Shown here: one piece after another, positions 1 to 16,407 of the stretch
Layout of the letters: every line of letters begins with the position of its first letter
Numbering within the stretch: position 1 is the first letter of the stretch
Source of the DNA: Clostridia bacterium
Lineage (GTDB): Bacteria; Bacillota; Clostridia; Oscillospirales; UBA644
Reading direction: 5' to 3'
NCBI GenBank assembly: GCA_017623595.1
Contig: JAGAOU010000044.1
Location: forward strand, 173,319 to 237,318
Length of the DNA stretch: 64,000 nucleotides
Notes under the pieces: generated by a model
The model's input: the letters and a program-made list of their open reading frames with translations, nothing else
Database searches by the model: none
Told to the model about the DNA's origin: nothing
Position numbers and translations under genes: made by a program

Positions 1-668
1 TTATTTTATATTCAACCGTTTTGGATGCCTTTGACAACCAGTGTGTTACACTACAACCGTACAAGTTCCGCGACAGAGCAAATTTTTACGTTGACAACCA
101 ATGGCTTGCAACGTTTACAAGAGATAGAGAAACAATAAAAATTGCAGACGGCGTTCAAACTGTTGGCGGTTTACCTGCTATTACTCAAAACGGATCCAAG
201 AGAAAAATTGATGTTCTTGTAGAAAATATAGGACGCGTCAACTTCGGAAAGGAAATCTGTGACGAACGAAAAGGTTTAGAAGATGCAATTCTATCCTCAA
301 AGGCCAAACTATTCGGCTATGAAACACGGACACTGCCTCTAAACGATCTTTCAAAACTTGAATGGAGTAAGGAAAAAAACAAAAGCGTACGCCCGTGCTT
401 CTTCAAAGGGCATTTTGAAGCCAAAAGCGGCATCGATACGTATGTGGACTTTTCGAAATTCGGTCACGGGTACATTTGGATCAATGGATTCAATCTCGGC
501 AGATACGACAGTTTAGGACCTCAACTGACTCTGTATGTACCGGGCGGACTTTTACGTGAAAGAAATAACGAAATCATTGTTTTGGATATTGATCCGATCG
601 AAAAAAGGAACTATATCTCACTTTTGGATCATGAAATACTTGAAGGAGACGCCGCAGATCTGTCATAG
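1..668 (+). CDS. Beta-galactosidase, GH35 family, C-terminal part (5' end lies outside the window)
   Basis: The frame is open from base 3. The C-terminal sequence GYIWINGFNLGRYDSLGPQLTLYVPGGLL...NEIIVLDI is typical of the bacterial GH35 (BgaC-like) C-terminal beta-sandwich. Stop codon TAG at 666-668. Confidence 0.75.
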   Translation, partial: ILYSTVLDAFDNQCVTLQPYKFRDRANFYVDNQWLATFTRDRETIKIADGVQTVGGLPAITQNGSKRKIDVLVENIGRVNFGKEICDERKGLEDAILSSKAKLFGYETRTLPLNDLSKLEWSKEKNKSVRPCFFKGHFEAKSGIDTYVDFSKFGHGYIWINGFNLGRYDSLGPQLTLYVPGGLLRERNNEIIVLDIDPIEKRNYISLLDHEILEGDAADLS

Positions 669-836
669 CAGTACTTCAAGAGCATCGAGCAGGTGGAGTA
701 TGAGGTTTGAGGTTGCTCTGTTGTCGATCCCGTTTGCCTTCTGTTTAAGTCTCTTTGCGTTGAGAGCTTCGATAGCAACTCGTAGTTCAAAGGGGGTGAG
801 TTTAAGCCTGCGAACCATGGTATATCCGTTTTTCAT
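663..836 (-). CDS. Small hypothetical protein, 57 aa (MKNGYTMVRRLKLTPFELRVAIEALNAKRLKQKANGIDNRATSNLILHLLDALEVLL); below the 60-aa cutoff of the ORF track
   Basis: ATG at 836 lies about 8 nt downstream of a GAGGA Shine-Dalgarno, with a sigma-A-like promoter at 870-898. Stop TGA at 663-665 overlaps the convergent GH35 stop by 6 nt. I recognise no family. Confidence 0.5.
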   Translation of the reverse strand: MKNGYTMVRRLKLTPFELRVAIEALNAKRLKQKANGIDNRATSNLILHLLDALEVLL

Positions 837-869: not shown

Positions 870-898
870 ATTATATCAGAAAAGCGGGTATTTCTCAA
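870..898 (-). promoter_or_regulatory. Sigma-A-type promoter for the 57-aa ORF
   Basis: On the minus strand: TTGAGA (898-893), 17-nt spacer, TATAAT (875-870). Confidence 0.45.
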
Positions 899-1086
899 AT
901 GTGCGATAAAGTTGCAGGTTCAAGTCCATAAGGTTCAAGGAAAGGTGCAATGGTGAAAAGGGGGTGTTTTTTTACCCCTAAAAACACGAAAAGCTCTTGA
1001 AAATCAAGGAGTTTTGTGTTCGGGTGCAAAATTGTTGCCCCAATATGCGCTCGTAGTACAAAAATGCAACTCTTGAATTTAGTGGA

Positions 1087-1256
1087 ATATTCGGCGCTGC
1101 CGAATGTGAAATAATGTGCTATCGCACATTGTGAAATATCTCACTTCGTTCGATGTGAAATGAAATTCGCCCACATTCGCGCAGCGAATATTTCACATTT
1201 GCGGAGCAAATATTTCACAGCAGAGCTATTTCACTTGCCCGCAAGGGCAAATTTCG
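1087..1256. repeat. Dyad-symmetric array: 3x TGTGAAAT, then 3-4x ATTTCAC(A), with a different short perfect hairpin in each interval
   Basis: TGTGAAAT at 1105-1112, 1130-1137 and 1154-1161. ATTTCACA/ATTTCAC at 1190-1197, 1212-1219 and 1228-1234, with a degenerate ATTTCG at 1251-1256. Hairpins at 1089-1105, 1113-1130, 1175-1189, 1197-1211 and 1235-1250. Stops in all frames. Confidence 0.6.
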
Positions 1257-1259
1257 TTG

Positions 1260-1293
1260 AAAAAAGACGGTTACTTCCGTAACCGTCTTTTTT
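1260..1293. terminator. Bidirectional intrinsic terminator; ends the tRNA-Asn transcript on the minus strand and could end a plus-strand transcript
   Basis: AGACGGTTAC-ttcc-GTAACCGTCT, a 10-bp stem flanked by an A-run upstream and TTTTTT downstream. Confidence 0.7.
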
Positions 1294-1294
1294 C

Positions 1295-1370
1295 TGGCTC
1301 CCCCTGTAGGACTCGAACCTACGACAACGCGGTTAACAGCCGCGGGCTCTACCAACTGAGCTAAGGAGGA
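1295..1370 (-). tRNA. tRNA-Asn (anticodon GTT), CCA encoded
   Basis: The reverse complement TCCTCCTTAGCTCAGTTGGTAGAGCCCGCGGCTGTTAACCGCGTTGTCGTAGGTTCGAGTCCTACAGGGGGAGCCA folds by hand into a full cloverleaf. Anticodon loop is CT-GTT-AA and the T-loop is TTCGAGT. Confidence 0.95.
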
Positions 1371-1393: not shown

Positions 1394-1422
1394 ATTATAA
1401 CACTTTTTTTCTCAATTGTCAA
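1394..1422 (-). promoter_or_regulatory. Sigma-A-type promoter for tRNA-Asn
   Basis: On the minus strand: TTGACA (1422-1417), 17-nt spacer, TATAAT (1399-1394), about 24 nt upstream of the mature tRNA 5' end. Confidence 0.6.
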
Positions 1423-1571: not shown

Positions 1572-2717
1572 ATGTGGCAGAAGGTTTTTGATACCATCGA
1601 TTCTCTTGCGGATGAGTATCTTTTGATCTGGAAAGAATTTTGCGATATTGAGAGTCCCACCTCTTATAAAGAAGGCGTGGATAAAGCTTCCCGATATATG
1701 GTTGCGCTCGCGGAAAAAATGGGTTGGCAGGTGGAATACAATCGTCAGTCCGTTTCGGGAGATTGTGTTTGCATCACCATGAATCCCGGTGCGCCCGGTC
1801 GTCCCGTTGCAATGTCGGGGCACGTGGATACTGTGCATCCCGTAGGTTCCTTCGGCAATCCCGCCACCCGCATTGAAGGGGATAAGATCTTTGGACCCGG
1901 CGTTGTCGATTGCAAAGGGGGCGTTGTGGCGTCATTTCTTGCCATGGCTGCGCTGCAGCAATGCGGCTTTCAGGATCGCCCCATTATCAATCTGCTTCAA
2001 AGTGATGAGGAAATCAGCAGCATCACCAGCAATAAGCAGACTGTCGCTTATATGGGTGAAAAGGCAAAGAATTGCGCAGTATTTATGAATACGGAAGGTT
2101 GTGCGCCCGGAACCCTTACCATCGAGCGAAAAGGAATTCAGCGCTATGTCTTTGATATACGGGGAAGGGCGGTTCATTCCTCCGAATGCTATGAAGGGAT
2201 CAATCCCGTGACCGAGGCGGCGCATAAAATCCTTGCCCTGGAACAGTTTAAGGATCCTGAGGGAATTACCTGTAACTGCAGTGTGATTCAAGGAGGGACG
2301 ACTCCCAACACCGTTCCCGATTCCTGCTCTTTTCTTGCCGATTTTCGATATAGGACTATGGCGCAACGGGATTATATCGAGCAATTTGTGCGTGATTTGG
2401 CCGCAAAATCCTTTGTGGAAGGATCTGTCTGCACCGTCACCGAGAAGAGTCGTCGGATCTGTATGGAGCGGACGGATTTTAACGAGGAATTATTGTGTAA
2501 CATCTGTAATATATATGAAAAAACCGGCCTTCCTGCCGTGAAGGGTGTCTTCGGCAAAGGTGGCTCCGATGCGGCGGATATGACTGCCCGCGGAATTCCC
2601 TGCCTTGACGGCTTTGGTGTGTACGGAAAACGGGTGCATTCCGTGGAAGAATATGCATACATTGATTCTCTTGCGCAGGCGGCCAAGGCAATGGCTGCCA
2701 TCACCTTGTATCTCTGA
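1572..2717 (+). CDS. M20 family metallopeptidase (carboxypeptidase G2 / glutamate carboxypeptidase-like)
   Basis: ATG at 1572 follows GGAGGA. The track's start at 1416 would run through the promoter. Motifs SGHVDTVHP, DCKGG and SDEEISS are typical of M20. Confidence 0.8.
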   Translation: MWQKVFDTIDSLADEYLLIWKEFCDIESPTSYKEGVDKASRYMVALAEKMGWQVEYNRQSVSGDCVCITMNPGAPGRPVAMSGHVDTVHPVGSFGNPATRIEGDKIFGPGVVDCKGGVVASFLAMAALQQCGFQDRPIINLLQSDEEISSITSNKQTVAYMGEKAKNCAVFMNTEGCAPGTLTIERKGIQRYVFDIRGRAVHSSECYEGINPVTEAAHKILALEQFKDPEGITCNCSVIQGGTTPNTVPDSCSFLADFRYRTMAQRDYIEQFVRDLAAKSFVEGSVCTVTEKSRRICMERTDFNEELLCNICNIYEKTGLPAVKGVFGKGGSDAADMTARGIPCLDGFGVYGKRVHSVEEYAYIDSLAQAAKAMAAITLYL

Positions 2718-2743
2718 TTTAATACGGATTGCGAATTTTGAGA

Positions 2744-2778
2744 AGCCCTTCCCGATATAATATAGGGGAGGGCTTTTT
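2744..2778 (+). terminator. Intrinsic terminator of the M20 gene; its 3' arm contains the Shine-Dalgarno of the next gene
   Basis: AGCCCTTCCC (2744-2753) pairs with GGGGAGGGCT (2765-2774) with one G-U pair. The 11-nt loop is gatataatata, followed by a TTTTT tract directly before ATG 2779. Confidence 0.6.
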
Positions 2779-3816
2779 ATGTCTTTTTTTGAATGGATAA
2801 CATGTGTTATTTCCTCTGTTCCGTTGGCATGTCTGACTTTTTTGACTCTGTGTGTAATTTTTGTTAACGGCTGGACCGATGCTCCCAATGCGATTGCTTC
2901 CTGCGTGGTAACGAGAGTGCTGACGCCAAAAGGTGCTGTTGTCATGGCTTCAATCTGCAATTTTTTTGGGCTGATTCTTTCCGTGGCCGTGAATCGTACC
3001 GTTACTGACACCGTCTATTCCATGGTGGATTTCGGTCCGGATGTCTCCTTGTCCCGTATCGCTCTTTGTGCGGCGCTGACTGCGGTTGTTGTTTGGGCGG
3101 TTTCCGCATGGTTTTTTGGGATTCCTACCAGCGAAAGTCATGCTCTGATAGCCGGTATTACAGGTGCTGCATTCGCTTTGCGCGGGGGAGACGGAATCCG
3201 TTTTTCTGTCTGGAGTCGCGTTTTGTGGGGTTTGCTCCTATCAGTAGGAATCGGTTTTTTGTTCGGCTGGCTTTCAACCCGTATGATACTTTATTTTTTT
3301 TCAAAGATAAGAAGAGACCGCGCACAATTTATCTTTTTCCGTACTCAAATTTTGGGTGGTGCGATGAATGCGTTTCTCCATGGCGCACAGGACGGTCAAA
3401 AATTTATTGGAGTTCTTCTGTTGTCCGTGGCCGCGCACACAGGGGAATCCGTGGCTGAAATTCCGTTATGGATGGTTCTTCTTTGTTCGGTAGTTCTCTC
3501 TTGCGGGACGGCTCTCGGTGGGGGACGAATTATTCGTGCTGTTGGAATGAAAATGTTGAAGCTTGAGCGATTTCAAGGGGTTGCTTCGGATGTTGCTTCT
3601 GCCGTCAGCCTTCTGATTTGTTCCGTGTTTGGGCTTCCCGTCAGCACTACTCACGTAAAAACAACCTCTGTTATGGGCGCAGGCTCCGCCGTTCGTATCC
3701 GTTCTGTGAATTGGAGTATTGCGGGACAGATGGTTGTCGCCTGGTGCCTAACCTTTCCCGGTTGCGGTCTTTTAGGATACGGGATGGCAAAGGTGTTCCT
3801 GATGCTGTTTCAATAA
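2779..3816 (+). CDS. pit: Inorganic phosphate transporter, PiT (PHO4) family
   Basis: Multi-pass membrane protein with the N-terminal NGWTDAPNAIA motif and the second GAQDGQKFIG motif characteristic of PiT. Confidence 0.85.
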   Translation: MSFFEWITCVISSVPLACLTFLTLCVIFVNGWTDAPNAIASCVVTRVLTPKGAVVMASICNFFGLILSVAVNRTVTDTVYSMVDFGPDVSLSRIALCAALTAVVVWAVSAWFFGIPTSESHALIAGITGAAFALRGGDGIRFSVWSRVLWGLLLSVGIGFLFGWLSTRMILYFFSKIRRDRAQFIFFRTQILGGAMNAFLHGAQDGQKFIGVLLLSVAAHTGESVAEIPLWMVLLCSVVLSCGTALGGGRIIRAVGMKMLKLERFQGVASDVASAVSLLICSVFGLPVSTTHVKTTSVMGAGSAVRIRSVNWSIAGQMVVAWCLTFPGCGLLGYGMAKVFLMLFQ

Positions 3817-16332: not shown

Positions 16333-16407
16333 TGGCACCCCCAACAGGAATCGAACCTGTAACTAGCCCTTAGGAGGGGCTTGTTATATCCATTTAACTA
16401 TGGGGGC
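16333..16407 (-). tRNA. tRNA-Arg (anticodon CCT), CCA encoded
   Basis: The reverse complement GCCCCCATAGTTAAATGGATATAACAAGCCCCTCCTAAGGGCTAGTTACAGGTTCGATTCCTGTTGGGGGTGCCA folds by hand into a cloverleaf. Anticodon loop is CT-CCT-AA. Confidence 0.95.

Follow-up and report, generated by a model that had tools for sequence, protein, structure and literature searches.

Within a 64,000-nucleotide stretch of a Clostridia bacterium genome (Oscillospirales, UBA644; GenBank assembly GCA_017623595.1, contig JAGAOU010000044.1, positions 173,319 to 237,318 of the forward strand), referred to here as the window, a non-coding array of mini-hairpins separated by a conserved short motif lies next to a tRNA-Asn gene. 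We find that this block is almost certainly one complete copy of Gut-1 (Rfam RF01706), with a full unit spanning 1082-1259 and a sense strand that is the minus strand, co-directional with the tRNA-Asn. Gut-1 is an already catalogued family of unknown function, and the window copy is an ordinary solo member of it. The family has an architecture that extends well past the Rfam model, its stems covary, its conserved heptamers change in concert, and its members are linked to tRNA genes and terminators and to genes of the PF05635 protein family. In the reading that we prefer, to which we give a probability of roughly 0.4, the element serves as a multivalent platform for a PF05635 oligomer.

In a cmscan search against all of Rfam, the minus strand at 1259..1185 matches RF01706 at 66.7 bits (E 7e-13; gathering score 50 bits) across model positions 1-77 of 77, and a diverged, inverted Gut-1-like array on the plus strand at 1080..1166 gives a weaker match that stays below the gathering score (36.3 bits, E 1e-5 to 3.5e-5). 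The aligned window copy reads, in order, anchor CAACGAAAU, hairpin H1, GUGAAAU, hairpin h2, GUGAAAU, hairpin h3 and GUGAAAU, that is, three consecutive hairpins spaced by GUGAAAU with the CAaUGAAAU element in front, the same heptamer-hairpin consensus as that of Gut-1 as published (CAaUGAAAU-hp-GUGAAAU-hp-GUGAAAU-hp-GUGAAAU; RF01706; Weinberg et al. 2010, Genome Biol 11:R31, PMC2864571). Across 28 elements the stems of H1, h2 and h3 are 94.6-97.6% paired and show double changes in 12 of 13 pairs; relatives align with the window copy, and they occur in gut metagenome-assembled genomes, all of them Clostridia/Eubacteriales, from human, goat, sheep, deer, buffalo, horse and chicken. An earlier note on this stretch, made from the letters alone, had not recognised the array as a known RNA family and had itself named a hit to a described family as grounds for refutation; the Rfam match is such a hit.

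The original study found the motif only in human-gut environmental sequences, rated it 'RNA = Y' on covariation and proposed no function; in the flanks of its alignment a tRNA-CCA end or a terminator precedes the motif and an inverted array follows it, and some of its lineages carry GUGAUAU/AUAUCAC (PMC2864571). Compared with that account, which makes no mention of links to tRNAs, terminators or PF05635 (PMC2864571), the occurrence of Gut-1 is wider and takes in gut metagenome-assembled genomes from ruminants, horse and chicken, and the unit is longer, since the Rfam model accounts for just 75 of the 178 nt and lacks hairpin h4, a closing helix that we call P1 and the whole of a second half, Side B. 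Our literature search on Gut-1 returned this 2010 paper as the only one on the motif, beside one review of diversity-generating retroelements (DGRs) and unrelated microRNA papers. The extended architecture, the position behind tRNAs and terminators and the PF05635 linkage were absent from the literature that we found on Gut-1 and PF05635, and we offer them as additions of the present analysis, to be checked.

The full composite emerged from a DNA scan that covered 185,579 species, with one genome for each, and looked for three GTGAAAT motifs at spacings of 9-20 nt; it returned 120 loci. About 35 of these are '+++(+)---(-)' arrays, and the reverse order occurs in none of these Clostridia arrays. 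Their hosts are assigned to Clostridia, Eubacteriales, Oscillospiraceae, Ruminococcaceae, Acutalibacteraceae and Christensenellaceae, from human, ruminant, horse and chicken gut metagenome-assembled genomes. A profile made from 28 full copies then yielded about 45 full or partial copies. At least 28 full copies have the same order of parts, and composite length among related copies is 173-192 nt; 16 related copies from 11 loci, PF05635 cassettes included, pass the RF01706 gathering score. The order is a hairpin, the anchor CAACGAAAT, Side A, a segment X'' and Side B. Side A consists of hairpins H1, h2, h3 and h4 at periods of 16-22 nt around three GTGAAAT heptamers, X'' is the reverse complement of the anchor plus the 5' arm of H1, and Side B places three hairpins of 17-18 nt, at a period of 24-25 nt, among four ATTTCAC heptamers.

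In the window, a profile hidden Markov model of the 28 full copies aligns over its entire length with 1259..1082 (score 142.7, E 4e-42), which delimits the complete 178-nt composite on the minus strand. Read along that strand, the anchor CAACGAAAT (1251..1259), a degenerate first heptamer that in all copies is CAACGAAAT, CAATGAAAT or CAGTGAAAT, abuts the T-run of the terminator and is followed by H1 (X:X', TTGCCC-ttgc-GGGCAA, 1235..1250; 97.6% of cells paired, 5 of 6 pairs compensatory), heptamer A1 (GTGAAAT, 1228..1234), the weakest stem, h2 (AGC-tct-GCT, 1219..1227; its column class is 97.6% paired, with compensatory changes in 3 of 3 pairs), heptamer A2 (GTGAAAT, 1212..1218), h3 (ATTTGC-tcc-GCAAAT, 1197..1211; a perfect inverted repeat that covaries), heptamer A3 (GTGAAAT, 1190..1196) and h4 (ATTCGC-tgc-GCGAAT, 1175..1189), whose hairpin length was picked by pairing, so that this helix is biased. 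The junction of the two halves (1162..1172, sense GGGCGAAUUUC) is the 3' strand of P1 and pairs with the 5' strand at 1245..1255 (sense GAAAUUUGCCC), which overlaps H1; this helix is not in the Rfam model. Side B opens with ATTTCAC (1155..1161) and continues with unit B1 (ATCGAACGAAGTGAGAT, 1138..1154), a poor hairpin whose 17-mer recurs unchanged in L024, L071, L111 and L121 and whose helix is the least paired of all (82.7%), then ATTTCAC (1131..1137), hairpin B2 (AATGTGC-gata-GCACATT, 1113..1130; 95.8% paired), ATTTCAC (1106..1112), hairpin B3 (ATTCGGC-agc-GCCGAAT, 1089..1105; 95.7% paired) and a degenerate last heptamer, ATTCCAC (1082..1088), at the unit end, where related copies have ATTTCAC. 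The three heptamers of Side A and the first three of Side B match the motif exactly. On a contig of the same species from another sample (L003:225-402), a single G>T breaks the B3 stem (ATTCGTC against ATTCGGC in the window), a stem polymorphism within the species.

On the plus strand, the octamer TGTGAAAT occurs at 1105-1112, 1130-1137 and 1154-1161 and ATTTCACA at 1190-1197 and 1212-1219, with ATTTCAC at 1228-1234 and ATTTCG at 1251-1256; perfect inverted repeats occupy 1089-1105, 1113-1130, 1175-1189, 1197-1211 and 1235-1250, and the intervals 1138-1153 and 1219-1227 pair weakly. All of these lie exactly where the earlier note had put them, and its terminator and tRNA-Asn are present too. 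To its list we add three items. A fourth motif, degenerate (GTGGAAT), occupies 1082-1088; 1162-1172 is complementary over 11 bp to the distant 1245-1255; and the halves are asymmetric, the spacer period being 24-25 nt in one and 16-22 nt in the other. A 22-nt direct repeat (1172-1193 and 1194-1215) contains two stems that differ by a compensatory change. The 64 kb contain nine exact octamer matches, five of them inside 115 nt; the other four are at chance level (3.7 expected per window).

The array is a real, strongly selected mini-hairpin array, far beyond chance. Taken without its terminator and compared with dinucleotide shuffles, the 178-nt unit folds better than any of 200 shuffles as minus-strand RNA (z = -7.05), as plus-strand RNA (z = -5.31) and as DNA (z = -7.41). 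When full elements were aligned with MAFFT, Side A was shifted by entire repeat units, and that alignment was not used for a covariance model. We instead constructed an alignment by cutting elements at their heptamers and combining fixed-length stem ends with constant linkers, with columns assigned by position and not by pairing. Among 28 distinct elements, standard pairs fill 94.8% of cells as against 66.0% in column shuffles, both-sided compensatory changes occur in 40 of 45 pairs tested, and the covariation score of 0.768 (versus 0.216) is reached by none of 500 shuffles; as a control, sliding the partner by 1-3 columns leaves at most 53.5% paired. For every stem, complementarity within elements exceeds that between elements, at a level that none of 5000 permutations attains. 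The stems are thus kept as structure and not as sequence, as had been suggested from the window alone.

P1 comprises 11 bp, formed by GAAAT and six further bases with X'' and ATTTC, and closes Side A; 98.1% of its cells are paired and 8 of its 11 pairs are compensatory in the same 28 elements. Since P1 and H1 share a 5' strand they are alternative pairings, and X, X' and X'' covary as a triple. This bears on the nested rod that had been proposed for the octamer pairs: the heptamers of the two halves do stay complementary through three motif types, as such a rod would need, but P1 closes Side A on itself, and the relatives L012 and L172 have Side B heptamers that are not complementary, so that the P1 fold is the better supported.

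A comparison at an orthologous site extends the argument to solo copies. Locus L130 of GCA_054291685.1 encodes a relative, 59% identical, of the M20 peptidase beside the window tRNA, and its synteny is that of the window, with tRNA-Asn, M20, PitA, deacetylase and SpmAB. An element lies at the same place in L130, with the whole design kept and the stems different; that the design has been kept over so large a divergence speaks for selection on solo copies. Two other M20 relatives (P0004 and P0005, 67% identity) were considered as empty-site comparisons and set aside, being neither syntenic nor accompanied by a tRNA or an element. L130 also carries a ZMP/ZTP riboswitch (RF01750, 65 bits) at 858-938 on the minus strand, upstream of a pyruvate-formate-lyase-like gene.

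The conserved linear motif claimed for the window holds for the family: it is formed by the heptamers, which are probably the part that is read. Within one element they are identical; from lineage to lineage, those of the two halves change together with the anchor and the P1 tail, giving the types GTGAAAT/ATTTCAC, GTGATAT/ATATCAC, GTGAAGT/ACTTCAC and ATGAAAT/ATTTCAT. Each half has four to five heptamer-like motifs, and all 8-10 motif copies of an element change together across both halves, with exceptions. In L130, every heptamer is GTGAAGT/ACTTCAC, the anchor is CAACTAAGT and the P1 tail is ACTTA. A metagenome scan for GTGATAT arrays gave about 120 loci, mostly unrelated tandem repeats, with about 12 family members and nine full composites among them. 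A second full composite in the window's own species, just outside the window (L002:1926-2102, minus strand), has several degenerate heptamers (ATGAAAT, ATATCAC, ATTTCAT); it sits between a gene for a 160-aa protein and an AraC-family gene, with TCAG plus a hairpin and no tRNA in front. Variant forms were also encountered. In L272:896-1090 and at L044:~3060-2890, a hairpin and a long-range stem are followed by contiguous tATTCAC/tcTTCAC heptamers with no hairpins between them (four such copies in L044 and three in L272), and a metagenome-assembled Akkermansia locus (L009:2314-2500) has a GTGAAAT hairpin array followed on the same strand by a hairpin array with the linker CGAGATT four times over, a hint that hairpin arrays may form a broader class in which the linker depends on the lineage.

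The link to a protein family comes from both directions. In 6 of about 30 composites from the DNA scan, an open reading frame (ORF) of 115-119 aa begins 15-55 nt after Side B on the same strand, and its product belongs to PF05635, '23S rRNA-intervening sequence protein' (96 bits; the family is listed in PMC10053308), and to TIGR02436, 'four helix bundle protein' (107 bits). The closest relative with a solved structure is 2RLD, whose single entry has five chains, and the protein has no match among the PADLOC defence models. The family member bAvd is a nucleic-acid-binding pentamer. Starting instead from three exact proteins, and counting only loci with at least 120 nt of upstream sequence, we found a full GTGAAAT-type composite in 27 of 27 loci, on the same strand and ending about 55 nt before the ATG. 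This AAAT-linked clade is very abundant and conserved to an unusual degree, with 87-98% identity among the best 120 cluster representatives, mostly on short contigs. A second, more distant PF05635 clade, met beside the GTGATAT-type element L152, has GTGATAT-type composites in 16 of 16 loci. With the two clades taken together, a composite of the matching type lies just upstream in 43 of 43 loci with enough upstream sequence, and since each clade has its own heptamer type, protein clade and heptamer type go together. Both types occur in series within one contig in L272 and L279. Between strains, the spacer from trmO to the PF05635 gene in L288-L297 varies from 218 to 694 nt, corresponding to one to three tandem GTGATAT-type units; in L288, L290 and L291 a further composite follows the PF05635 gene.

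We interpret the heptamers as functional contacts and the hairpins, free in sequence, as rigid spacers that would keep the heptamers apart and exposed, the two together forming a multivalent binding platform for an oligomeric protein, for which an Avd-like four-helix-bundle protein of PF05635/TIGR02436 is the prime candidate. A complete unit would then be a self-contained cassette of platform, promoter and protein gene, the gene starting about 55 nt after Side B, in which the platform may act as operator or as leader RNA. The window copy is solo, because no PF05635 gene lies within about 60 nt after its Side B on the same strand; it sits within the tRNA-Asn 3' trailer, and the protein that it would bind would come from another locus of the genome. 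Binding at the heptamers, whether RNA or DNA is the ligand, and the outcome of binding are the steps that we infer. The platform model explains why an element has identical heptamers, why these change in concert between lineages, why the stem sequences are free, why each half has four to five motifs and why 43 of 43 loci show the linkage. It stands near the proposal in the earlier note of an iteron-like set of direct and inverted protein-binding sites, which is still a live reading.

Several observations weigh against this platform. Most composites are solo (about 24 of 30 from the DNA scan), and no PF05635 gene is found in the 64-kb window, where the best tblastn match has E 0.75; Side B is followed there by 245 nt of other sequence and then by an unrelated 57-aa ORF without a family match. 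The pairing of clade and heptamer type may be plain co-inheritance of neighbouring DNA. Side B is not the complement of Side A in L012 (CATCAT), L172 (ATATCGM) and L009. Wobble pairs are almost absent from the stems (about 1% G.U), which is unusual for RNA. Loops of the types C-GNA-G and C-GNNA-G are found on the ATTTCAC strand, which is opposite for the two halves; loops of this type are those of hyperstable DNA mini-hairpins and also those of GNRA-like RNA loops. A strong hairpin with a T-run stands directly before the element and leaves no room for a promoter, so that transcription of solo copies would depend on read-through of the terminator. Finally, where a promoter lies between Side B and the gene, the element is outside the mRNA, and a DNA operator fits better than an RNA leader.

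Whether the element acts as RNA has a direct bearing on the alternative implied by the Rfam label 'Gene; sRNA', namely an autonomous structured RNA made from the tRNA-Asn 3' trailer or by read-through, in which the alternative pairings H1 and P1 would act as a switch, the complementary A and B heptamers might zip into a rod, and PF05635 would be a neighbourhood effect. The Rfam match and the original covariation-based rating as RNA speak for it, as do the fixed co-orientation with upstream tRNAs and genes (17 of 17), the strong RNA folding z-scores, the triple covariation of X, X' and X'', and the complementarity of A and B heptamers through three or four types, within which the change A6>G6 keeps an A-U pair as G.U on this strand only. 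Among 1187 stem pairs from 207 unique spacers, however, 1139 are Watson-Crick, 15 are G.T and 20 are A.C, without strand bias, a count that suggests selection for Watson-Crick pairs alone or a role for both strands. Loops on the GTGAAAT strand are C-TNC-G or C-TNNC-G. No promoter fits between terminator and element, the flanks outside Side B of 33 elements show no recurrent inward promoter at a constant distance, and no regular terminator follows Side B among composites. In at least six loci, promoters pointing away from the element abut the last heptamer, and most AAAT-type cassettes have a conserved promoter, TAGACA-17-TATAAT or TACAAT, that abuts the last heptamer and precedes the gene. By contrast, in L078 the ATG follows Side B after 15 nt that contain no promoter, and the P0317 loci (trmO, composite, PF05635 gene) have no sense-strand terminator-like site and only weak promoter-like matches (9 of 12), inside the repeat unit; lacking a promoter or terminator before the ORF, L078 and the trmO loci would have their sense strand transcribed, which makes sense-strand transcription of the element plausible from its layout. 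An autonomous RNA would leave the within-element identity of the heptamers and the 43 of 43 linkage on the protein side unexplained, and we consider it unlikely. A plus-strand small RNA ending at the 1260-1293 terminator, as had been suggested for the window, is doubtful, given that the orientation of the family in every related locus is that of the strand co-directional with the upstream tRNA or gene, here the minus strand, and that no promoter recurs on the other side of the element.

The element has a fixed position, directly behind a terminator. In the window, the tRNA-Asn(GTT) gene (1295..1370, minus strand; ARAGORN, Rfam tRNA 65 bits) has the promoter TTGACA-17-TATAAT (1422..1394, minus strand; 12 of 12 matches in the promoter scan) and is followed by a bidirectional terminator of A-run, 16-bp stem and T-run (1259..1294; 16+16 nt, 100% complementary), whose hairpin abuts the anchor here and in all related copies. 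The GC-rich stem and T-run of an intrinsic terminator are found only at 1259-1294; the array hairpins have no T-runs, except for a weak terminator match at 1235-1250. In 17 of 31 composites the first GTGAAAT is preceded, at a distance of 32-85 nt, by the end of a tRNA gene; this gene is co-directional and on the Side A side every time (17 of 17), and the adjacent tRNAs represent at least 12 different anticodons. The hairpin that the anchor always abuts is usually a symmetric A-run/stem/T-run and otherwise a GC hairpin, and copies without a tRNA often have 'CCAG' or a tRNA 3' half in front of it. The window's second tRNA gene, tRNA-Arg (16333-16407), has no Gut-1 element.

Such a placement would suit a passive hairpin block, a back-up bidirectional terminator, insulator or 3' exonuclease barrier for the tRNA gene with no specific partner, the more so as the element often directly precedes the next promoter and as its distal half, in either direction of transcription, presents hairpins and then U-rich AUUUCAC. 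Yet a barrier has no need of an invariant 7-nt linker or of its concerted change, nor of a covarying long-range helix and a constant length of 173-192 nt; a linkage to one protein family would be unexpected, and tRNA-Arg does without the element. We regard this explanation as quite improbable.

The units are also modular. Near-identical copies with different flanks occur twice over in single contigs (L039 and L071, two each), tandem units occur in L012, L115 and the published BAAZ01000130 (240-nt period), and one exact PF05635 protein was found in at least five genomic contexts. In L274 a tRNA-Glu is followed by a cassette, and in L272 by two extra modules and then the same cassette; the same module stands behind two different terminators in L272 and L279, and the cassette hairpin recurs 3' of the gene. 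L276:1-250, in which a PF05635 ORF is cut after about 10 codons and joined to the 3' half of the next unit's cassette hairpin, is a recombinational deletion between tandem cassettes. These copies with new flanks, tandems and differences in context and modules indicate that units duplicate and shuffle. No recombinase consistently nearby, terminal inverted repeat or target-site duplication was found at composite loci, there was no match among 72,556 plasmids, and a phage collection gave a single match, an unverified faecal 'phage' contig carrying the same cassette. In three contigs (L252-L254) an IS3-family transposase pair (HTH_21 + rve; 2627-3813) follows the PF05635 cassette downstream at a distance of about 400 nt and is probably an unrelated insertion.

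Much of this would be expected of a DNA-level mobile or recombining module, made up of hairpin and composite with or without the PF05635 gene, that accretes behind tRNAs and terminators, with heptamer-hairpin arrays as recombination ends or ends recognised as single-stranded DNA and the window copy as a gene-less derivative, comparable to a miniature inverted-repeat transposable element (MITE) or a solo long terminal repeat (LTR); the idea is not exclusive with the platform. In its favour are the differing flanks, the tandems, the many contexts of one protein, the presence/absence difference between L274 and L272, the module shared by two terminators in L272 and L279, the 'CCAG' or tRNA 3' half before the hairpin of tRNA-less copies and the L276 deletion, along with the Watson-Crick-only stems, the C-GNA-G loops of DNA mini-hairpin type and the close identity (87-98%) of a PF05635 clade that sits mostly on short contigs. 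The enzymes and scars of such a module are nonetheless missing from the composite loci, as are plasmid matches, and a 'phage' record gave one match; to our knowledge a four-helix bundle is not a known recombinase or transposase. Copy number seems low, with one element in the 64-kb window and a second on L002, and the retention of the element with compensatory changes at the orthologous tRNA-Asn has the look of purifying selection and not of a decaying relic. As a full explanation, we take such a module to be rather unlikely.

The platform that we favour has recognisable parallels. The 11-mer TRAP with the trp leader, and CsrA with CsrB/RsmZ, bring together many short motif copies regularly spaced on one RNA and a symmetric oligomer. 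Gut-1 resembles those RNAs in its repeated motif and in spacers that are free in sequence; it differs in that their motifs are of 3-5 nt, in loops or 2-3 nt apart, whereas Gut-1 has obligate stems between motifs and an inverted second half, and binding is a feature of the known systems that for Gut-1 is only inferred. bAvd is an accessory protein of DGRs, in which a hairpin/cruciform lies next to target sites. The likeness here is in the shared PF05635 family, a small basic four-helix-bundle oligomer working with structured nucleic acid, and in GC-rich hairpins with G..A loops near the site of action; in contrast to DGRs, the Gut-1 contexts listed have no reverse transcriptase gene and no template/variable repeat pair, and the gene stands alone with its own promoter. 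Cassettes with a PF05635 ORF are also known as 23S rRNA intervening sequences (IVS), which share with Gut-1 the protein family and the form of small, inverted-repeat-rich cassettes attached to a stable-RNA gene; the Gut-1 cassette lies behind tRNA genes, outside the mature RNA, and we know of no heptamer-hairpin array in 23S rRNA intervening sequences. Repetitive extragenic palindromes (REP/BIME) are likewise intergenic, terminator-proximal and hairpin-forming, occur in both orientations and can be tandem, but REP conserves its palindrome in hundreds of copies per genome, and in Gut-1 the palindromes differ and only the linker is conserved.

Other identities were considered and rejected. REP/BIME-type repeats do not fit, as every palindrome differs and 64 kb contain one locus, and neither does a CRISPR array, as the conserved unit is 7-9 nt, the intervals are palindromes of 9-18 nt and the orientation flips at the centre. 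An iteron-type replication origin or plasmid partition site does not agree with the window's neighbours, which are chromosomal housekeeping genes, or with the plasmid search; codon or anticodon display (GAA, GAU, AAU) does not agree with adjacent tRNAs of at least 12 kinds. DnaA boxes and Rex, CRP and Spo0A half-sites bear only a partial resemblance, and conservation does not extend to the eighth base. The lack of TG...CA termini and of target duplications speaks against Tn7- or Mu-like transposon ends, and C(UUCG)G tetraloops were dropped because the register shows triloops.

Downstream of Side B, the window has some further features. The 57-aa ORF (663-836, minus strand) has a promoter at 898..870 (TTGAGA-17-TATAAT with TG, 11 of 12 matches), overlaps the 3' end of a convergent GH35 beta-galactosidase gene and is without a Pfam match; on the same-species contig L002 it is annotated as a gene, and its equivalent in L130 is an unrelated 66-aa ORF. 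At about 905-945 on the plus strand, some 140 nt past Side B, gcaggttcaagtccataaggttcaagg resembles a tRNA T-arm fragment and may be a tRNA 3'-end remnant. Two terminator-like hairpins lie within 955-1020, aggggtgtttttttacccct and ctcttgaaaatcaaggag followed by TTTTGTGTT, and both also occur in the flank of the L111 element.

Since 2010 Gut-1 has stood without function, context or organism, and it now has a full-length definition, hosts, a fixed position and heptamers that change in concert. Carried further, and more tentatively than the platform itself, Gut-1 could be, in place of a free-standing sRNA, the cognate partner of PF05635 oligomers, with clade-specific heptamers shown four to five times per half between hairpins conserved only as structure, in cassettes that accrete behind tRNAs and terminators, possibly through an RNA or single-stranded-DNA intermediate starting at the tRNA 3' end, and that leave functional solo platforms behind; this is a somewhat doubtful proposition as a whole. 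If true, it would provide the first function for the orphan Gut-1 motif and for stand-alone '23S rRNA IVS / four helix bundle' proteins. The PF05635 linkage turns two orphans, a motif and an abundant family of stand-alone proteins, into one testable pair.

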